From IMG/VR virus record IMGVR_UViG_648861009_000008: a stretch of DNA of 46,481 nt; one strand, written 5' to 3'. Shown in pieces: positions 9,892 to 44,351 of the stretch. The position numbers were made by a program, and so were the translations under genes. A model generated the notes under the pieces. That model had not been told where the DNA came from. It worked only from the letters and a program-made list of their open reading frames with translations, and made no database searches. Position 1 is the first letter of the stretch. Each line of letters opens with the position of its first letter. The DNA is from a virus (lineage: Duplodnaviria; Heunggongvirae; Uroviricota; Caudoviricetes).

Positions 9892-10730
9892 NNNNNNNNN
9901 NNNNNNNNNNNNNNNNNNNNNNNNNNNNNNNNNNNNNNNNNNNNNNNNNNNNNNNNNNNNNNNNNNNNNNNNNNNNNNNNNNNNNNNNNNNNNNNNNNNN
10001 NNNNNNNNNNNNNNNNNNNNNNNNNNNNNNNNNNNNNNNNNNNNNNNNNNNNNNNNNNNNNNNNNNNNNNNNNNNNNNNNNNNNNNNNNNNNNNNNNNNN
10101 NNNNNNNNNNNNNNNNNNNNNNNNNNNNNNNNNNNNNNNNNNNNNNNNNNNNNNNNNNNNNNNNNNNNNNNNNNNNNNNNNNNNNNNNNNNNNNNNNNNN
10201 NNNNNNNNNNNNNNNNNNNNNNNNNNNNNNNNNNNNNNNNNNNNNNNNNNNNNNNNNNNNNNNNNNNNNNNNNNNNNNNNNNNNNNNNNNNNNNNNNNNN
10301 NNNNNNNNNNNNNNNNNNNNNNNNNNNNNNNNNNNNNNNNNNNNNNNNNNNNNNNNNNNNNNNNNNNNNNNNNNNNNNNNNNNNNNNNNNNNNNNNNNNN
10401 NNNNNNNNNNNNNNNNNNNNNNNNNNNNNNNNNNNNNNNNNNNNNNNNNNNNNNNNNNNNNNNNNNNNNNNNNNNNNNNNNNNNNNNNNNNNNNNNNNNN
10501 NNNNNNNNNNNNNNNNNNNNNNNNNNNNNNNNNNNNNNNNNNNNNNNNNNNNNNNNNNNNNNNNNNNNNNNNNNNNNNNNNNNNNNNNNNNNNNNNNNNN
10601 NNNNNNNNNNNNNNNNNNNNNNNNNNNNNNNNNNNNNNNNNNNNNNNNNNNNNNNNNNNNNNNNNNNNNNNNNNNNNNNNNNNNNNNNNNNNNNNNNNNN
10701 NNNNNNNNNNNNNNNNNNNNNNNNNNNNNN
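9892..10730. other. assembly gap (839 N) hiding the 5' end of J, genes K and I, and the 3' end of L
   Basis: Run of N; flanking ORFs are J (C-terminal part) and L (N-terminal part). Confidence 0.95.
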
Positions 10731-33535: not shown

Positions 33536-34715
33536 NNNNNNNNNNNNNNNNNNNNNNNNNNNNNNNNNNNNNNNNNNNNNNNNNNNNNNNNNNNNNNNNN
33601 NNNNNNNNNNNNNNNNNNNNNNNNNNNNNNNNNNNNNNNNNNNNNNNNNNNNNNNNNNNNNNNNNNNNNNNNNNNNNNNNNNNNNNNNNNNNNNNNNNNN
33701 NNNNNNNNNNNNNNNNNNNNNNNNNNNNNNNNNNNNNNNNNNNNNNNNNNNNNNNNNNNNNNNNNNNNNNNNNNNNNNNNNNNNNNNNNNNNNNNNNNNN
33801 NNNNNNNNNNNNNNNNNNNNNNNNNNNNNNNNNNNNNNNNNNNNNNNNNNNNNNNNNNNNNNNNNNNNNNNNNNNNNNNNNNNNNNNNNNNNNNNNNNNN
33901 NNNNNNNNNNNNNNNNNNNNNNNNNNNNNNNNNNNNNNNNNNNNNNNNNNNNNNNNNNNNNNNNNNNNNNNNNNNNNNNNNNNNNNNNNNNNNNNNNNNN
34001 NNNNNNNNNNNNNNNNNNNNNNNNNNNNNNNNNNNNNNNNNNNNNNNNNNNNNNNNNNNNNNNNNNNNNNNNNNNNNNNNNNNNNNNNNNNNNNNNNNNN
34101 NNNNNNNNNNNNNNNNNNNNNNNNNNNNNNNNNNNNNNNNNNNNNNNNNNNNNNNNNNNNNNNNNNNNNNNNNNNNNNNNNNNNNNNNNNNNNNNNNNNN
34201 NNNNNNNNNNNNNNNNNNNNNNNNNNNNNNNNNNNNNNNNNNNNNNNNNNNNNNNNNNNNNNNNNNNNNNNNNNNNNNNNNNNNNNNNNNNNNNNNNNNN
34301 NNNNNNNNNNNNNNNNNNNNNNNNNNNNNNNNNNNNNNNNNNNNNNNNNNNNNNNNNNNNNNNNNNNNNNNNNNNNNNNNNNNNNNNNNNNNNNNNNNNN
34401 NNNNNNNNNNNNNNNNNNNNNNNNNNNNNNNNNNNNNNNNNNNNNNNNNNNNNNNNNNNNNNNNNNNNNNNNNNNNNNNNNNNNNNNNNNNNNNNNNNNN
34501 NNNNNNNNNNNNNNNNNNNNNNNNNNNNNNNNNNNNNNNNNNNNNNNNNNNNNNNNNNNNNNNNNNNNNNNNNNNNNNNNNNNNNNNNNNNNNNNNNNNN
34601 NNNNNNNNNNNNNNNNNNNNNNNNNNNNNNNNNNNNNNNNNNNNNNNNNNNNNNNNNNNNNNNNNNNNNNNNNNNNNNNNNNNNNNNNNNNNNNNNNNNN
34701 NNNNNNNNNNNNNNN
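33536..34715. other. assembly gap (1180 N) hiding the hok regulatory region and the left part of IS5
   Basis: Run of N between the hokD start and IS5 transposase C-terminal coding sequence. Confidence 0.95.
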
Positions 34716-35379: not shown

Positions 35380-37167
35380 ATGGACGATATTAATATCAGC
35401 CTCGACGAACTTAACACTATTGATTTATCCCCCTTAATCCAGAGTAAGCTGCCAGTTACCTGCTTTGATATCACAAAGTATCTTTCTAGCCTAGGTGATG
35501 GAAGAGCGGAGATAAGACTGCTAACCCATATTTGCGGTTTTCACTTTCGTCCCGAAAATCCACAGGTACCATTTGGTCCGTGCTTTCAAAGCAGCCAAGG
35601 TAGATCTGCAATTCCGGATGACATTAACGGGTTGTCGCTGGAGGTACTTTCTCAATTTTGCCCGACGATAGAGCTACCCGAACTTCAAGCTCGTATTGCT
35701 GATACACTTTGGGTTCGTAAAATTGGTGGAATCCGTTTTCCTTTGCTGGCAGTCCGTGCTTATTATGCGTCCAGTATAGCTATTATGACATCGCAAGGGA
35801 CGTGGGTTAGTGCTTTAGAACGCCTAGAGCGTGCGCTTAGGCTGTGTTGTTTTTTTCGAAAGAATACTGATTTCAGGGATGAATTTGATCAGCTTTCGGC
35901 ACATCTACTAGCAGAGTATGAACGTACCAGAGAACAAGGCGATTCACCTTATCCGCTGCGACTCCTGCAACTCGATATCGACTGTAAAGTGAGTGAGCCA
36001 TCTTTTATTGCCCAGGAACTCCTGTTTCTGACAAAAAACTATCTGGCTCAAAAATTATTTTCATTTGCCGTCGATGCCTGTAAAACCGCAATCACGATTG
36101 CGAATAGGTGCTGTGACAGAGATACACAGTTTGAATTCTGGCGGCTTCTTGCCGATACACATCTGGAAGAGTCAAAATTCCAAGATGGCGGTATGATTTC
36201 GGCAGCCTGCATGCAGAATGCTATTGAAGCACTGGCTAATATTCCAGGAACCCGAATAGAACGTCTTGCGCTGTATGAAGAAATGCGTGATTACCAAATC
36301 GAATCCCGTCACCAGATGTCTATCCTTCAGTCTCCCCCTCAAGATATTAGTGAGATTGTCCATCAAGCCAAGAGTCGGGTAGTCGGAAGAGATATGTTTG
36401 ATATGGTTTTCAGACTTGCGATGCTGGTCTGTCGGCCAACCAGCATTGAGAGACTTAAGGCTCAAGCAATAGAACAAAAGGCCAACAGCATAGCTTGGAT
36501 GTTTGGATCAACACATATTGATCATGAGGGAATGACACTTGCTCGCATACCCGCAGGATTGGGGATTGATGATGCAAATGGGGCAGTTATTTGGCCCATA
36601 ATGATGACGAGAATGCGTATCGACCATGAGTTGGCAGTAGCTGGGCAAATTATTCCTGCTACAGATGAGATCACAATGAAATATCCAATCTCGGAGGCGT
36701 TTTTTCGCGATATGTTCATCAATCATCCCTTCATCCCGTTTGGGCATGAAGAGTTTTTCATCAAGGGTATGGTTTGCGGTTTCAATGGAGATTTTATGAC
36801 GGCATGCCACGTGTTGATTCCCCAGATCGAAAATAGTCTGAGATATGTGGCTAAAATTAAAGGTGAGGAACCATCGCAGCTTCACGGGGACGGTTCGCAA
36901 GAGCGAAATGGACTCAAGGGATTACTAGATAATCCACTGATTATTGAAGCTTTCGGCGTAGACATAATTGGCAATCTTCAGGCCTTACTGGTAGATAAAA
37001 TCTATGGTGATTTACGAAATCAACTAGCTCACGGATATGTGCCTGCCGGTTACTACAATCAACCTCCCTGCATTTTTGCATGGTGGCTTGTATTGCACAT
37101 TCTAATGAACCCTACGGCGAGATACTGGCAAGCCACTTATGGCCAAGAGAGTGAGGCTCAGACTTAA
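35380..37167 (+). CDS. orphan 595-aa protein, mostly helical, C-terminal RNxxxH (HEPN-like) motif; candidate abortive-infection/defence effector
   Basis: Intact ORF with AAGGTGA RBS; opposite strand to the phage early operon; AT-rich upstream region; IS5 end 200 bp upstream; GC and codon use lower than flanking phage genes; motif LVDKIYGDLRNQLAHGY near the C-terminus. Confidence 0.7.
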   Translation: MDDINISLDELNTIDLSPLIQSKLPVTCFDITKYLSSLGDGRAEIRLLTHICGFHFRPENPQVPFGPCFQSSQGRSAIPDDINGLSLEVLSQFCPTIELPELQARIADTLWVRKIGGIRFPLLAVRAYYASSIAIMTSQGTWVSALERLERALRLCCFFRKNTDFRDEFDQLSAHLLAEYERTREQGDSPYPLRLLQLDIDCKVSEPSFIAQELLFLTKNYLAQKLFSFAVDACKTAITIANRCCDRDTQFEFWRLLADTHLEESKFQDGGMISAACMQNAIEALANIPGTRIERLALYEEMRDYQIESRHQMSILQSPPQDISEIVHQAKSRVVGRDMFDMVFRLAMLVCRPTSIERLKAQAIEQKANSIAWMFGSTHIDHEGMTLARIPAGLGIDDANGAVIWPIMMTRMRIDHELAVAGQIIPATDEITMKYPISEAFFRDMFINHPFIPFGHEEFFIKGMVCGFNGDFMTACHVLIPQIENSLRYVAKIKGEEPSQLHGDGSQERNGLKGLLDNPLIIEAFGVDIIGNLQALLVDKIYGDLRNQLAHGYVPAGYYNQPPCIFAWWLVLHILMNPTARYWQATYGQESEAQT

Positions 37168-37264
37168 AGTGAATAAGTTTACGAAGTTGGCACTTCCGGA
37201 TGCATGTCCATATGAGTTGAGGCGATTTGGTTAATAAGGTTGAGTGCTGCTGAAATTATTCGAT

Positions 37265-37288
37265 GTCCGCTTTTGGCACAAAGCGGAC
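37265..37288. terminator. hairpin between the convergent 595-aa and 133-aa genes (possible bidirectional terminator)
   Basis: GTCCGCTTT-tggcac-AAAGCGGAC, 9-bp stem. Confidence 0.4.
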
Positions 37289-37385
37289 AACCACGCCAGA
37301 TCTACCCTGTGCCATGAAAAATGAGAATGTCAATTCACTCCTGAACTAATGCTTTTTAATCTAGTAACGTCTAAAATACCTAACA

Positions 37386-37787
37386 TTATCCCTGATAAAA
37401 TGCCAGTATGCGCTGCATAACTTCACTCATCCGGCACTCGCGACAGATTATGTTTAGGCGACTGTCGTAGCGACGTATTTCTCCATCAGGTAACGACCAG
37501 ATAAGGTCCGGATCAACCACAGCTGTTTTCTTCACCTTTGCCCTCGAGAGTTTTTTGCGGGCGTTTTGCCAGTCCTTACGCGCCTGTTCAGACGGGAATA
37601 ACCCGTAGCCGGAGTTGTATACATCGCCACTGGCTACCAGCTCTCTGGCAAGAACGCTCATCAGATATCTAGTCGCACCTGTTTTAGCTTCCAGTTGCCG
37701 TAACGTCTCACGACCGCTCTGGCGCACGAGTTCCACCACCTGCCCTTTAATTTTTTCCCGCTCTTCTTGTGTAAAAACTTTTGCCAC
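37386..37787 (-). CDS. hypothetical protein in the replication operon (133 aa)
   Basis: ORF 40 nt downstream of the O-like gene on the same strand; not recognised. Confidence 0.5.
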   Translation of the reverse strand: MAKVFTQEEREKIKGQVVELVRQSGRETLRQLEAKTGATRYLMSVLARELVASGDVYNSGYGLFPSEQARKDWQNARKKLSRAKVKKTAVVDPDLIWSLPDGEIRRYDSRLNIICRECRMSEVMQRILAFYQG

Positions 37788-37827
37788 AAGTCCCCCTTAA
37801 AATTACCTCATGACCTGAAATCAAAAC

Positions 37828-38847
37828 TTATCCTCTGAAACCAGGCGGAATTTCTGTATCCGGTTCAGAAATATGATTAACACAACGCTGTACAGGTGAA
37901 CGCCCCAGGCGGATGACCAGTTCGTCCCATTTTTCGCGGAGCTTTGACGGGCTCATGATGTTTTTTACCCAGAATGGATCCCGCTGTACCCGACCAAACA
38001 TTTCACAAATTTGTCTGTGGCTTCTGCCATCCAGCATCCGCATTGTGCGCACATCATTGGCCCAGACAGTCCAGTTAGGCTCTTTTGGTCGCATGATCTC
38101 GCCATCATCACTGGCGGCCTGTTCGTAGAGACCCACGATCCGCCCCCATATCCACTGCGCACACGCCAGATCCTCCTGGCTACCCCACTGGCGTTTTTTC
38201 GCACTAAACACAACTGCGCCAGGGTGCCGGATTAAAAAATCCTGTTCAGCCGTCTGCGGGTCCGGTTGCGAAGCTTCCGGACGAAAAGTGTTTTTATTCT
38301 CTGTAGTAATCTCTGTTGTATTCTCTGTAGGATCATCGGGCCATTTTGACCCGATGACATTGGGTCGTTTTGAACCAATGGAGCGTTTCATTTTGACCTC
38401 TTCCATCGTGTCATTTTGACCTGATGGAGCGGCGCATTTTGAACCGATGGATTCGCTCAATTTGCCATCATCTAAAAGCTCGCTTCCATAGTTAATCGTG
38501 TAGAAATTGGTCATATCGCGCTTTGATTTATTGAGCTTTTCACAACGCAAAAGCCCCAGCGTTTTCAGACTTGCAAACGCGCGCTTTAACGTTGACTCTG
38601 ACCAGAATGGGAACTGTTCCAGCCATTGTTCCGTTGTGTTGTAAATCCAGCGAACACCATCACATTCCATGCCGGAATTGGTATCTCTCAACCAGTAATG
38701 CAACTGCTGCAACACAATGGCTTCATTTAAGCCAATCTTCATCGCAAGCTGTGTGTTTATAACCAGTGGGCGTTCAGCAAAAAGAAGGCTCATAATTCCA
38801 TCCAGCTTTTTGTTGGTATTGCTGTCGATACGCAAGTTTGAAAGCAA
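37828..38847 (-). CDS. replication initiator (lambda O-like) with internal origin iterons; true start uncertain (the ORF overlaps the upstream gene by 74 nt)
   Basis: N-terminal helix-rich DNA-binding-like region; five ~23-bp iterons inside the coding sequence. Confidence 0.7.
   Translation of the reverse strand: MLSNLRIDSNTNKKLDGIMSLLFAERPLVINTQLAMKIGLNEAIVLQQLHYWLRDTNSGMECDGVRWIYNTTEQWLEQFPFWSESTLKRAFASLKTLGLLRCEKLNKSKRDMTNFYTINYGSELLDDGKLSESIGSKCAAPSGQNDTMEEVKMKRSIGSKRPNVIGSKWPDDPTENTTEITTENKNTFRPEASQPDPQTAEQDFLIRHPGAVVFSAKKRQWGSQEDLACAQWIWGRIVGLYEQAASDDGEIMRPKEPNWTVWANDVRTMRMLDGRSHRQICEMFGRVQRDPFWVKNIMSPSKLREKWDELVIRLGRSPVQRCVNHISEPDTEIPPGFRG
38343..38451. repeat. origin iterons: five direct repeats of about 23 bp with core (C/G)ATTTTGA(A/C)C(C/T)NATGGA
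   Basis: ccATTTTGACCCGATGa / cgTTTTGAACCAATGGa / tcATTTTGACCtcttcc / tcATTTTGACCTGATGGa / gcATTTTGAACCGATGGa at regular spacing. Confidence 0.7.
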
Positions 38848-39295
38848 TTGCTTTTTCTATAAGTTCGTCAGTTTCACGATCCACTACGGCAGGATCAGCA
38901 AAAAGCAGTCCGGACTCCACCACATCGCCATATTCTTTGTTTAACCCGGCGATCATGTACGTGATGCTTTTTCCGTCACTAATTTCACGATACAACCTGA
39001 AATCATTAATCCGGATAGCCTCCATAATTGCAGGCACTAGCGCCGTGAACTTTTCACGCTTATCCCTGGTGTCGATAGCCTTCCAGCGTTCGAATATCTT
39101 CACTCGATTAACGCCAAGCGCTCGCTGATCAACCGCGCCACCTTCATCTGTGACACGCTGAACATCGATGTTCGGGCGCTCTTTCAAAGCCCAGAATGCT
39201 TCAGTGATTAATATCGTCGCCTGCTCCTGTGTCATTCCTGGTCGACATATCCAGGCATCCAGAGCCTCACGAGCCTGTTCAGGAGTGATTTTCAT
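38774..39295 (-). CDS. phage early regulatory protein (YdaT/YdfX-like, CII position)
   Basis: 173-aa ORF immediately downstream of the Cro-like dicC on the same strand. Confidence 0.55.
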   Translation of the reverse strand: MKITPEQAREALDAWICRPGMTQEQATILITEAFWALKERPNIDVQRVTDEGGAVDQRALGVNRVKIFERWKAIDTRDKREKFTALVPAIMEAIRINDFRLYREISDGKSITYMIAGLNKEYGDVVESGLLFADPAVVDRETDELIEKAIAFKLAYRQQYQQKAGWNYEPSFC

Positions 39296-39506
39296 TGTTC
39301 AACCGCCCCGCCCGCTTCGTCTTACGATATTCGTCATAAACCTTGGGATCATACAGAAGCTCGCCGCCAGATGCCTCCTGTAGACGCATCGCGCGACCTT
39401 CAGGAACCAGCTCTTGCCATTGAGAAACAGCAGATGGGTCAACGCCAGCAGCTTTCGCTACTTTGGCTTTCGTACCGTAAAAATTAATTACGTCTGATTT
39501 AAACAT
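39279..39506 (-). CDS. dicC: Cro-like repressor DicC
   Basis: MFKSDVINFYGTKAKVAKAAGVDPSAVSQWQELVPEGRAMRLQEASGGELLYDPKVYDEYRK...; divergent from dicA. Confidence 0.8.
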   Translation of the reverse strand: MFKSDVINFYGTKAKVAKAAGVDPSAVSQWQELVPEGRAMRLQEASGGELLYDPKVYDEYRKTKRAGRLNNENHS

Positions 39507-39583
39507 CGCACCTCCAGTATTGAGTTTTCTCAATGCTAATCACTCAAGGAATCTCAAGTCAAGGGTTATTAAGATATCTAAAT
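39507..39583. promoter_or_regulatory. divergent dicC/dicA promoter-operator region with palindrome ATTGAG-tttt-CTCAAT (39518..39533)
   Basis: 77-bp intergenic region between divergent repressor genes containing a dyad. Confidence 0.5.
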
Positions 39584-39991
39584 ATGAACGAGAAAACTTT
39601 AGGTCAACGCATTAGAGAAAGACGTAAGCAGGTAGGTTTAAGTCAAAACGGTTTAAGCAAAGCTGCTGGCGTATCTGGCTCATCAATTTCATTATGGGAA
39701 AGTGACCATACAGCCCCGCGCGGGCAAAATTTGCATCGCCTCGCCGAGGTATTGCAATGTTCACCAACCTGGATACTGTTTGGCGACGAGGACAAAACAC
39801 CAGCTCCCCCTGTTTCACTCGATAGTGCCTTAGACTTATCGGAAGATGAGTTAGAGATGCTGCGTTTGTATCGCGCACTTCCTAAATCAGAGCAACAAGC
39901 ACAACTCAGCGAACTCCGCGCCCGCGTTGAGAATTTTAATCGCCTGTTCACCGAGCTATTAGAGGCTCGCAAACGCAACAAGCATCAATAA
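39584..39991 (+). CDS. dicA: CI-like HTH repressor DicA
   Basis: ...GQRIRERRKQVGLSQNGLSKAAGVSGSSISLWE...LQCSPTWILFGDEDK... matches DicA as recalled; the ORF track starts at 39533. Confidence 0.85.
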   Translation: MNEKTLGQRIRERRKQVGLSQNGLSKAAGVSGSSISLWESDHTAPRGQNLHRLAEVLQCSPTWILFGDEDKTPAPPVSLDSALDLSEDELEMLRLYRALPKSEQQAQLSELRARVENFNRLFTELLEARKRNKHQ

Positions 39992-40183
39992 TCATCCCTT
40001 CACAAAATTTTAAAGCCTTACATTTCAATGTATTGGCTTTATCTTGCGCCAATACTTGAGTTTTCTCATCAAAAAGCCTTGACGAAAAATAATGAGAAAA
40101 CTAAATTACCTCCATCAACACACCGCACGGTGTTCTCAGCAAACAGTTCCGCTACCCCGGCGTTAAGGGGAAATGAGGTCAGC

Positions 40184-40339
40184 ATGGATACTATCGATCT
40201 TGGCAACAACGAATCTCTGGTGTACGGCGTGTTTCCAAACCAGGACGGCACGTTCACCGCAATGACGTATACCAAAAGCAAAACGTTTAAAACCGAAAAT
40301 GGTGCCCGTCGCTGGCTGGAAAGAAACTCAGGTGAGTGA
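40184..40339 (+). CDS. ydfA: YdfA small protein
   Basis: MDTIDLGNNESLVYGVFPNQDGTFTAMTYTKSKTFKTENGARRWLERNSGE; GAGGT RBS. Confidence 0.8.
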   Translation: MDTIDLGNNESLVYGVFPNQDGTFTAMTYTKSKTFKTENGARRWLERNSGE

Positions 40340-40340
40340 T

Positions 40341-40853
40341 ATGGATTTCGACACAATCATGGAAAAGGCTTACGAAGAATACTTCGAAGGCCTTGCCGAA
40401 GGCGAAGAAGCTCTCAGCTTCAGTGAGTTTAAACAGGCACTCAGAATAAGAATGCGCTCTCACAATGACGCGGAGCACAAATATGAGAAGCAAAATCAGA
40501 CCGCAGAAAATTTTGTTCTGGAACCCGGAGAAACGCTTTTCAAAATTCCCGTTACGTGCCCCATTTGCGGTTTTACATCAGAAGAACTTGACGACTCCTG
40601 TAACAATCAGGAAACAACCAAGTATGTCGAAGATGATACCGAGTGCGCACGAAGAACGATTATATCCACGAGTCCAAACTCCAGGACCAATAAATCTCAC
40701 TTTGAGAGGGTGATTAATCCACTCCCCCAAACCAATAAAAAAGATGCCGGAGGACAAAAAACCAATGGAACAACGGGATATCTGTCAAAAAAAGACGTTC
40801 CATTAAAGACAAACAACGCAGCGCCAACAACTGTAAGCGCTTTATACCAGTAA
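40341..40853 (+). CDS. ydfB: YdfB-like protein (170 aa here; K-12 ydfB is shorter as recalled)
   Basis: MDFDTIMEKAYEEYFEGLAEGEEALSFSEFKQAL... then a longer C-terminal part with a CPICGF zinc-ribbon-like motif; start overlaps the ydfA stop. Confidence 0.65.
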   Translation: MDFDTIMEKAYEEYFEGLAEGEEALSFSEFKQALRIRMRSHNDAEHKYEKQNQTAENFVLEPGETLFKIPVTCPICGFTSEELDDSCNNQETTKYVEDDTECARRTIISTSPNSRTNKSHFERVINPLPQTNKKDAGGQKTNGTTGYLSKKDVPLKTNNAAPTTVSALYQ

Positions 40854-40951
40854 TCAATTTTCATGTTCTTAAGCGGATTTATTGGTGGTTGCGACATTGC
40901 TTAATGAATCCTTAAAACTGTGGTGATTTTAAGGATACCACCTCGCCTGAC

Positions 40952-41239
40952 GTGGTTAAAAGCAGGCACACAACACGAAAGCGCACGGCGAAGTTCGTCT
41001 CACTGTACGGTGTCGTCAAATTTAATTCGACCGTGCGCTTCCGGTTGTGGCAACCCGCGAAATGGCGCGGCGGTAAGTATGGCGGGGTTATTCCTTCCCC
41101 GTTGAGGACACCGAGTTGTCAGGTTGACCATACGCTTAAGCGACAACCCCGCTGCAACGCCCTCTGTTATCAATTTTCTGGTGACGTTTGGCGGTATCAG
41201 TTTTACTCCGTGACTGCTCTGCCGCCGTTTTTAAAGTGA
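40952..41239 (+). CDS. ydfC: YdfC-like ORF; the reading frame runs through the DicF region, so the true end is uncertain
   Basis: MVKSRHTTRKRTAKFVSLYGVVKFNSTVRF... Confidence 0.4.
   Translation: MVKSRHTTRKRTAKFVSLYGVVKFNSTVRFRLWQPAKWRGGKYGGVIPSPLRTPSCQVDHTLKRQPRCNALCYQFSGDVWRYQFYSVTALPPFLK
41175..41227 (+). ncRNA. dicF: DicF small regulatory RNA (about 53 nt) followed by a T-run at 41228..41232
   Basis: TTTCTGGTGACGTTTGGCGGTATCAGTTTTACTCCGTGACTGCTCTGCCGCC matches DicF as recalled, between ydfC and dicB. Confidence 0.85.
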
Positions 41240-41401
41240 ATTTTGTGATGCGGTGAATGCGGCTAAGCGCACGCGGAACAGTTAAAACCAAAAACAGTGT
41301 TATGGGTGGATTCTCTGTATCCGGCGTTAATTGTTAACTGGTTAACGTCACCTGGAGGCACCAGGCACTGCATCACAAAATTCATTGTTGAGGACGCGAT
41401 A

Positions 41402-41590
41402 ATGAAAACGTTATTACCAAACGTTAATACGTCTGAAGGTTGTTTTGAAATTGGTGTCACTATCAGTAACCCTGTATTTACTGAAGATGCCATTAACAAG
41501 AGAAAACAAGAACGGGAGCTATTAAATAAAATATGCATTGTTTCAATGCTGGCTCGTTTACGTCTGATGCCAAAAGGATGTGCACAATGA
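41402..41590 (+). CDS. dicB: cell-division inhibitor DicB
   Basis: MKTLLPNVNTSEGCFEIGVTISNPVFTEDAINKRKQERELLNKICIVSMLARLRLMPKGCAQ (62 aa). Confidence 0.9.
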   Translation: MKTLLPNVNTSEGCFEIGVTISNPVFTEDAINKRKQERELLNKICIVSMLARLRLMPKGCAQ

Positions 41591-44299: not shown

Positions 44300-44351
44300 N
44301 NNNNNNNNNNNNNNNNNNNNNNNNNNNNNNNNNNNNNNNNNNNNNNNNNNN
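44300..44351. other. assembly gap (52 N) between two overlapping copies of the same ~445-bp sequence
   Basis: 43851..44299 and 44352..44798 are near-identical apart from single-base indels. Confidence 0.9.

Follow-up and report, generated by a model that had tools for sequence, protein, structure and literature searches.

A probable replication origin within the single replication gene of an mEp460/HannyBb-type lambdoid prophage

Results

Repeat arrays within the initiator gene

The IMG/VR virus record IMGVR_UViG_648861009_000008 (Caudoviricetes), analysed here as one stretch of 46.5 kb (hereafter the window), carries a gene for a replication initiator whose central part is built from short direct repeats, and this block of repeats, at about 38260-38472, is the probable replication origin that is the subject of this work. 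The window represents nearly a whole lambdoid prophage and is collinear over its readable parts with the phages HannyBb, mEp460_ev081, PhiR42_1 and Tritos; three runs of N (masked or unresolved; 9892-10730, 33536-34715 and 44300-44351) make the genes at these places unreadable. The initiator region is 97-98% identical to that of HannyBb, mEp460_ev081 and PhiR42_1.

The initiator gene itself lies on the minus strand at 37828-38793 and encodes 321 amino acids from an ATG at 38793; in the mechanical list of open reading frames (ORFs) it reaches further, to a TTG at 38847. Its length and position are those of the annotated gene of HannyBb, an isolated phage, with a DNA identity of 97.8% and an intact reading frame. 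The protein matches PHROG 391, 'replication initiation O-like', with an E value of 3.5e-92, and a search of the whole protein against Pfam returned no family at E values up to 0.01.

An earlier note on this DNA had described five direct repeats of about 23 bp at regular spacing, and these are indeed present: two repeat finders both recover a 23-bp and a 12-bp array. The 23-bp array, which we refer to as iterons, spans 38334-38449, with start-to-start distances of 24, 23, 23 and 23 bp and one extra base between units 2 and 1. Iteron 1 (38334-38356; coding strand CATCGGGTCAAAATGGCCCGATG) adjoins the 12-bp array and is the best palindrome (inverted repeat I3), iteron 2 (38358-38380; CATTGGTTCAAAACGACCCAATG) is palindromic too, iteron 3 (38381-38403; GAAGAGGTCAAAATGAAACGCTC) has kept the core and lost both outer arms, iteron 4 (38404-38426; CATCAGGTCAAAATGACACGATG) is a near-palindrome, and iteron 5 (38427-38449; CATCGGTTCAAAATGCGCCGCTC) completes the array. 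A degenerate sixth iteron-like unit follows in register at 38450-38472 (GATTCGCTCAATTTGCCATCATC; coding strand GATGATGGCAAATTGAGCGAATC), a position at which mEp460_4F5 and Klebsiella phages have a better copy (GAGGTCAAAGTGAMC). Units 1, 2 and 4 conform to the near-palindrome CATCGGGnCA...TGnCCCGATG, and the palindromic core in the window is GGTCA-AAA-TGACC. The shared core YRTTTTGAMC, starting at 38342, 38366, 38389, 38412 and 38435, occurs only once more on either strand of the 46.5 kb, compared to an expectation of 1.25 occurrences, and none of 100 shuffles reached six. The core originally proposed, ATTTTGACC.GATGGA, is exact in unit 4 only; units 1, 2 and 5 show 2, 4 and 1 mismatches to it, and unit 3 has lost the right arm (CATTTTGACCTCTTC).

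The second array consists of three tandem 12-mers at about 38293-38330 (coding strand ACAGAGAATACA / ACAGAGATTACT / ACAGAGAATAAA). These had been noted before as three TCTCTGTAG repeats preceding the iterons; the 12-bp tandem is real, but in the direction of the gene, which is encoded on the minus strand, it comes after the iterons. By itself, the 9-mer TCTCTGTAG is not rare in the window (9 matches with at most one mismatch, versus 5.1 expected), and the non-random feature of the 12-mers is their tandem arrangement together with their conservation in relatives. At -32.7 kcal/mol, compared to a mean of -40.8 for the window, the stretch is the gene's least stable 30-bp duplex, and just 1.7% of the 30-bp segments in the 46.5 kb fall below this stability, making it a candidate DNA-unwinding element. 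DnaA boxes, IHF sites and primase trinucleotides were also considered for the 12-mers; there was no convincing match, and we claim none.

Ten nucleotides past the 12-mers, the sequence and a hairpin scan revealed an inverted repeat, GTCCGG(11 nt)CCGGAC, at 38260-38282. In 20 other enterobacterial, Pantoea and Xenorhabdus loci, the corresponding element has a 10-bp stem and a 3-nt loop, GTCNGGTTGC-nnn-GCAACCNGAC. These relatives were chosen by a pattern that fixes the outer pairs, so that only the inner pairs count as evidence. Among the latter, the pair 14-20 is GC in 17, UA in 4 and CG in 3 of the 24 aligned loci and is never unpaired, and the compensatory variants GGTTTC/GAAACC and GGTTCC/GGAACC alter the encoded amino acids.

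Conservation of the layout across phyla

For a comparison beyond the immediate relatives, one genome per species was scanned with a profile of the initiator's N-terminal domain, which yielded 80 loci; with GenBank phages added, the set comprised 85 non-redundant loci with 49-100% identity in this domain. A scan of viral contigs returned copies with 96-100% identity only, which are informative for copy-number variants, not for diversity. The loci come from Escherichia, Citrobacter, Klebsiella/Raoultella, Enterobacter, Pantoea, Xenorhabdus, Morganella and Edwardsiella, and also from Pseudomonas, Acinetobacter, Comamonas, Gilliamella, Bacillus-group genera, Staphylococcus and lactobacilli.

Two or more ACAGAGA 12-mers spaced by 12 bp were found in 65 of the 85 loci, always in an identical reading frame. 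Upstream of them, most loci carry three to seven repeats, whose start-to-start spacing is 23 bp in 127 of 214 cases and 21, 22 or 24 bp in a further 55. Calling iterons where at least three consecutive units stand in a 21-25 bp register, a threshold reached by none of 200 shuffled controls, we obtained both elements in 50 loci, 12-mers only in 15, iterons only in 9 and neither in 11. Among close relatives, most (56 loci) have five cores and three 12-mers, while 26 score four cores and one has four 12-mers. The alleles L010 and P0100 contain one extra 12-mer.

The palindromic iteron core changes with lineage at the third base of its half-site: the Escherichia group has GGTCA...TGACC, most Pantoea, Pseudomonas, Erwinia and other loci have GGGCA...TGCCC, the remaining Pantoea loci share GGACA...TGTCC with Staphylococcus phage P954, and Geobacillus has GTTCAAAATGAAC. 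By contrast, the 12-mer ACAGAGAWTACW stands right after the iterons from Enterobacteria to Geobacillus, Staphylococcus and lactobacilli (for example at 2947-2994 in L007, 2947-2970 in L008 and about 2880-2900 in L009, and in most of L010-L089). As the 12-mer stays constant while the iterons diverge, its reader must be equally conserved, and would thus be either an invariant surface of the initiator or a universal host factor. A copy of the initiator-origin block with 78% identity is present in mEp460_4F5. The block is also exchanged as a unit: Klebsiella phages combine the shared N-terminal domain, iterons, 12-mers and hairpin with an unrelated C-terminal domain, the recombination joint being just past the origin.

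Selection on DNA within a coding sequence

The 23-bp period causes successive iterons to be translated in three different frames, yielding SIGSKC, PSGQND, EEVKMK, SIGSKR and VIGSKW. We determined conservation at the three codon positions as the pairwise mean over 10 collinear enterobacterial relatives with 67-94% DNA identity. In the N-terminal domain, the values of 0.86, 0.93 and 0.57 for positions 1, 2 and 3 are the usual signature of purifying selection for protein, whereas the iteron array gives 0.84, 0.86 and 0.80 and the 12-mers give 0.94, 0.74 and 0.91. Within 189 12-mer units from 65 loci, it is a second codon position that holds the one variable base. The synonymous sites are fixed, with ACA as the first codon in 159 units and A at the third base of the first codon in all 189, and with GAG as the second codon in 173 and GAA in one. 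Since the iterons are read in three frames and their third codon positions are as conserved as the first and second, selection acts on the DNA; the iterons, 12-mers and inverted repeat are each conserved as DNA, not as peptide.

Natural E. coli alleles (P0018-P0023, 290 amino acids) have lost 31 residues in frame, a deletion of 93 nt corresponding to 38358-38450 of the window, which in P0020 removes four iterons by recombination between repeat units. The deletion resembles the in-frame ori-minus deletions of lambda that PMC6022878 mentions.

Domain structure of the initiator and proposed iteron recognition

The repeats separate two domains of the initiator. The N-terminal domain (amino acids 1-105; 38479-38793, minus strand) is a predicted winged-helix domain and the putative reader of the iterons. 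Searched against Pfam at E values up to 10, it gave no hit, neither to Phage_rep_O nor to RepA_N (PF06970). We also considered homology of this domain (110 residues) to lambda O and rejected it, as BLASTP and Pfam yielded nothing and a comparison of a 70-sequence profile with residues 1-128 of lambda O in hhalign returned a probability of 0.04. Searching the sequences of PDB with the same profile produced no significant hit, the best being a PadR-like protein (E 0.48), and a PDB search with the initiator protein returned only the DnaT tail described below and insignificant hits. A structural model of the domain based on 84 diverse homologues reached a predicted local distance difference test score (pLDDT) of 84.9 and a predicted template modelling score of 0.76, with winged-helix topology and a helix at residues 66-78 in the recognition position. 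In this model the fold is closest to RepA_N plasmid initiators and DnaD; in Foldseek searches, RepA N-terminal domains agree, at weak E values. In a separate AlphaFold2 model of the full-length protein, poor overall, the lowest confidence, with pLDDT values of 23-29 per 10-residue block, was obtained for residues about 111-170, the part encoded by the repeats.

If the N-terminal domain binds the iterons, its recognition helix should vary with their sequence, and such a pattern is seen across 70 loci: residue 67 (codon 38593-38595), with which the predicted recognition helix begins, varies together with the third base in the half-site of the iterons. Serine at this position goes with TCA in 26 of 27 typed loci, a pairing found in Proteobacteria as well as Firmicutes, and aspartate goes with GCA in 17 of 17. 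Histidine or asparagine accompanies C. Lysine or arginine is found where ACA appears, in five loci, in which A is the majority base in two, tied in one and in the minority in two; the Lys/A pairing occurs in Pantoea and the Arg/A pairing in Staphylococcus.

The C-terminal helical domain (amino acids about 183-295; 37909-38247, minus strand), for which AlphaFold2 predicts helices with pLDDT values of 64-85 per 10-residue block, is homologous to that of lambda O (BLASTP: 34% identity over 148 amino acids, E 3e-27). It is followed by a tail, QRCVNHISEPDTEIPPGFRG, comprising the last 20 codons (37831-37890, minus strand), in which phmmer revealed a close copy of the C-terminal end of E. coli DnaT. 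The tail is identical to the last 20 residues of DnaT at 14 of 20 positions, is C-terminal in both proteins, and as part of a 40-residue query matched the PDB chains 2ru8, 6aep and 9zbt_D with E values of 3e-4 to 7e-4. An identity of the initiator with full-length DnaT was rejected: only positions 160-179 of the 179 in the NCBIfam model DnaT (PRK02854) match, with 16.3 bits, far below the cut-off of 201. The label 'Primosomal protein I' in some phage records probably derives from the tail alone.

The phage offers no evident partner for helicase loading. No P-like, DnaC-like or DnaB-like gene follows the initiator, the next gene being DUF977/Ren-like, and the annotation of the complete HannyBb genome lists no helicase, loader or primase anywhere; the unnamed neighbouring ORFs of HannyBb proved to be QueH-like and DUF968/HNH. 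We surveyed the C-termini at the 82 loci where the initiator ORF is complete and 1.3 kb or more of sequence is available downstream. An ending of the type ...P-x-G-F-R/K-G is present on 24 of these initiators, some of which have a different C-terminal domain, and 23 of the 24 are without a Walker-A or P-like ORF within the downstream 1.3 kb, compared to 29 of the 58 initiators with other C-termini. Two loci from Izhakiella and Trabulsiella (L018 and L020), whose N-terminal domain and origin layout are the same as in the window, end in ...HWNSPEAWENTL, which is not DnaT-like, and they are the only ones followed by a lambda-P-like gene. The C-terminal ending seems to match the partner for helicase delivery.

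Discussion

We consider it highly probable that the replication origin of an mEp460/HannyBb-type lambdoid prophage is to be seen in the block at about 38260-38472, which is placed in the linker-coding part of the prophage's single replication gene. The earlier note had already pointed to a probable phage origin, and this proposal is supported by the conservation of the block, by selection at the DNA level, by the co-variation of residue 67 and by a layout similar to that of lambda. The repeats do lie inside an O-like initiator gene, as judged from its PHROG 391 assignment and the lambda O homology of its C-terminal domain, and they fall between its two domains; they are also conserved in related and in distant phages, with the same layout in 50 of 85 loci, where a lack of conservation had been named as grounds for abandoning the proposal. 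Two further claims need qualification. The analogy to a lambda origin embedded in gene O is correct for the layout and for the homologous C-terminal domain, but does not extend to the N-terminal domain, which is not that of lambda O. Likewise, the 'replication module' that the prophage was said to keep comprises the initiator gene, but it is one gene only, without P, a helicase or a loader.

An iteron origin inside the initiator gene is in itself not new; it is textbook knowledge for lambda and for RepA_N plasmids. As in the window, the lambda origin sits midway along the initiator gene, between the segments for an N-terminal DNA-binding and a C-terminal domain; lambda and Stx phages have four to six dyad-symmetric iterons (six in Stx variants) with a centre of the TCAAAAYG type, which the iterons of the window have as well, and a spacing of 20-24 bp. 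In lambda, the four annotated iterons, of the ATCCCTCAAAACGAGGGA type, start 20, 24 and 23 bp apart and are followed by an A-rich stretch, all inside O. The order from iterons to an easily melted stretch to an inverted repeat is shared, with GTCAGAG(14 nt)CTCTGAC at the same relative place in lambda, and so is the gene context of cI, cro, a cII-like gene, the initiator and a Ren-like gene. Yet the phage of the window has no P gene, its N-terminal domain is not detectably related to O, its melted region would be a sequence-conserved tandem of 12-mers instead of a plain A-rich tract, and its initiator ends in a DnaT-like tail. For lambda and Stx phages, published work describes that O binds and bends the iterons and that those nearest to the AT-rich tract suffice for unwinding (PMC7466680); binding of O to single-stranded DNA is cited in passages of the same paper.

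The domain structure, on the other hand, is almost the same as that of RepA_N initiators such as pSK41 Rep and pTZ2162 RepA (PDB 4pta, 4pql, 4pt7, 5kbj), which have about 320 amino acids, with a winged-helix N-terminal domain of about 105-120 residues, a linker in the middle for which the repeats of the origin code, and a distinct C-terminal domain. In pSK41 Rep, the N-terminal domain comprises residues 1-120, residues 121-199 are origin-encoded and dispensable as protein, and the C-terminal domain (200-319) deals with the host replication proteins (PMC5703833). For the initiator of the window, the disorder prediction and the natural 31-residue deletions suggest that the linker may be similarly dispensable as protein. 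It differs from RepA_N proteins in that it matches no RepA_N sequence model, belongs to a phage and not to a plasmid, and has a lambda-O-like C-terminal domain. Moreover, RepA_N replicons have been described for Firmicutes, while the family of the window initiator spans Proteobacteria and Firmicutes. A third possible parallel is offered by the 13-mers of RK2 and their reader TrfA: like the 12-mers, these are short tandem repeats adjoining iterons in the least stable duplex. According to passages of PMC4081077, the repeats in the unwinding regions of RK2 and F are bound by the Rep protein in a strand-specific manner.

From these comparisons, a possible sequence of events can be sketched. Dimers of the N-terminal domain would bind the palindromic iterons, with residue 67 reading the third base of each half-site, and on the phased A-tract array the bound dimers could build a nucleoprotein complex similar to the O-some. 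The strain of this complex would melt the adjoining 12-mers, probably aided by rightward transcription from the cro promoter, and the initiator may hold the melted 12-mers as single strands, as in RK2, F and lambda. More speculatively, the initiator itself might bring the host helicase, via its lambda-O-like C-terminal domain and the DnaT-mimicking tail, as the phage encodes no P, DnaC-like or DnaB-like protein. This recruitment step is a conjecture, since our search of the structural literature on DnaT found no statement of what its C-terminal tail does or binds.

Several observations, including this last one, weigh against the proposed origin and the mechanism built on it. The 12-mers are missing in 20 of the 85 relatives, and both elements are missing at this position in 11, so that the domain can evidently work with an origin elsewhere or of another form. 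With about 70% A+T, the 12-mer stretch is far less extreme than the AT-rich region of lambda, and in the lineage of the window itself the hairpin is interrupted in its inner part, which leaves a 6-bp stem. The counts of residue-67 co-variation ignore shared ancestry, and the association between the tail and the lack of a loader gene (Fisher p 4e-5) is uncorrected for relatedness. A full-length AlphaFold2 model, built from a shallow alignment of 12 sequences, was poor (pLDDT 55) and therefore not used for the fold search, and the disorder predicted for the repeat-encoded linker is read from low confidence values. Finally, our literature searches, which covered the 12-mer sequence, mEp460 replication and phage origins of DnaD-like organisers, did not find the origin described.

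How do other explanations account for the same data? One would be that the repeats merely encode a repetitive peptide linker, with selection acting on an amino-acid motif (IGSK; T-E-x-T) and the DNA repeats arising as a by-product. After all, the repeats are part of an ORF, the protein contains 'SIGSK' three times, and the reading frame of the 12-mers is always the one that gives T-E-x-T. However, two of the five iterons are translated in other frames into unrelated peptides (PSGQND, EEVKMK), the third codon positions of the iterons are as conserved as the others (0.80, compared to 0.57 in the domain), and in the 12-mers it is the second codon position that varies while synonymous sites are fixed. 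A linker that is predicted to be disordered, and from which natural alleles delete 31 residues in frame, is also a poor candidate for a selected peptide. On the strength of the reading frames and the codon-position conservation we rejected this explanation, which we regard as very improbable indeed.

There is somewhat more, though still little, to be said for two explanations that accept selection on the DNA. The repeats could be initiator sites for control, serving autoregulation, titration, handcuffing or the exclusion of related phages, with synthesis starting elsewhere. Iterons of plasmids also serve in copy-number control and incompatibility, and in 11 of 85 relatives the domain is found with no repeats at this place. 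What renders this unlikely is the presence of a conserved, easily melted repeat and an inverted repeat flanking the sites in the order of the lambda origin, the lack of a second cluster of cores in the window, and the precedent of lambda and pSK41, both studied experimentally, where such intragenic sites are the origin. Alternatively, the origin could be genuine in kind but dead in this copy, as part of a prophage remnant whose replication module no longer fires. Prophage origins do decay, alleles without four iterons exist in nature (the 93-nt in-frame deletion in P0020), no more than four exact cores are scored in 26 of 85 close relatives, and the masked runs of N limit a check of the window for completeness. 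Against such decay stand the full-length initiator ORF, the iterons and 12-mers, which differ from those of HannyBb at three positions only, and the collinearity of the readable parts with complete phage genomes, and we consider a dead copy equally unlikely. A functional origin of replication is thus the reading that we prefer.

A wider proposal is possible but tentative: the cassette might constitute an undescribed, cross-phylum type of replicon, whose initiator recognises the 12-mer unwinding element ACAGAGAWTACW, and whose enterobacterial 'O-only' form might load the host helicase without a phage loader, since its DnaT-like tail would plug the origin into the host PriA/DnaT or DnaB-DnaC system. 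'O-only' modules, consisting like that of the window of a single gene homologous to lambda O without helicase or loader, are reported in passages of a recent study (Genome Res 2025, PMC12315714) for phage LLS and for 34 of 314 lambdoid phages of Enterobacterales, with mEp460_4F5 as nearest relative in respect of the LLS repressor and Cro; their replication, unstudied, is called 'not yet understood' there. These passages report gene content and contain no mention of an origin, of 12-mers or of a DnaT-like tail, and the words DnaT and PriA are absent from the paper. For the 12-mer ACAGAGAWTACW, there was no replication-related paper among the 15 of 40 literature matches listed, and neither this origin nor the cross-phylum 12-mer, the residue-base rule or the DnaT-like tail was described in the literature that our searches covered.

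The elements described here are widespread. A 226-bp fragment covering the origin is present in 1911 of 5426 complete E. coli genomes, and relatives reside in prophages of many other Enterobacterales species. The initiator gene is mostly annotated as 'hypothetical protein', or else as 'phage replication protein O', and of the 120 homologues of the N-terminal domain that were listed, none comes with a precomputed Pfam domain. A name for the origin and for its reader would provide a handle for annotating and typing these prophages, and as a single residue (Ser, Asp or Lys/Arg) tracks a single iteron base, replicon specificity and incompatibility could be predicted from sequence. The DnaT-like tail provides a concrete hypothesis for how O-only lambdoid phages replicate, and, if true, would answer that question. 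In evolutionary terms, the architecture joins lambda O and the RepA_N plasmid initiators with proteins of the DnaD type into a single mosaic family.

Neighbouring genes and additional observations

The genes upstream of the initiator are YdaT/cII-like and P22-Cro-like, together with a divergent gene for a cI-like repressor; downstream is the DUF977/Ren-like gene, also called 'LygF'. In the window, the ORFs of the initiator and the YdaT/cII-like gene overlap by 20 bases (38774-38793) in different frames. Some E. coli genomes have the two genes called as one fusion of 448 amino acids (P0002-P0004) with the Pfam domain YdaT_toxin; as the two window ORFs overlap in different frames, the fusion likely reflects a frameshift or an artefact of gene calling.

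Inside the origin, a scan for promoters and terminators detected no signal beyond the chance level. It gave a promoter-like site between the genes for the cI-like and cro-like proteins (39533-39562, minus strand; a consensus match only, 9/12), which would drive transcription of cro, the cII-like gene and the initiator across the origin. An Rfam scan of 36500-41500 found no RNA family over the origin. Its only matches lie further right, in the prophage's leftward early region; they are a full-length antisense RNA, DicF, at 41176-41227 (plus strand; 72.5 bits against a gathering score of 48) and, after it, an STnc100-like match below threshold at 41225-41434 (plus strand; 34.5 bits against a gathering score of 47). 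On the other side, just past the Ren-like gene and on the opposite strand to it, a gene for a protein of 595 amino acids with DUF7380 and DUF4209 domains occupies 35380-37167 (plus strand); it is apparently absent from the matching place in HannyBb and may be an inserted accessory or defence gene.

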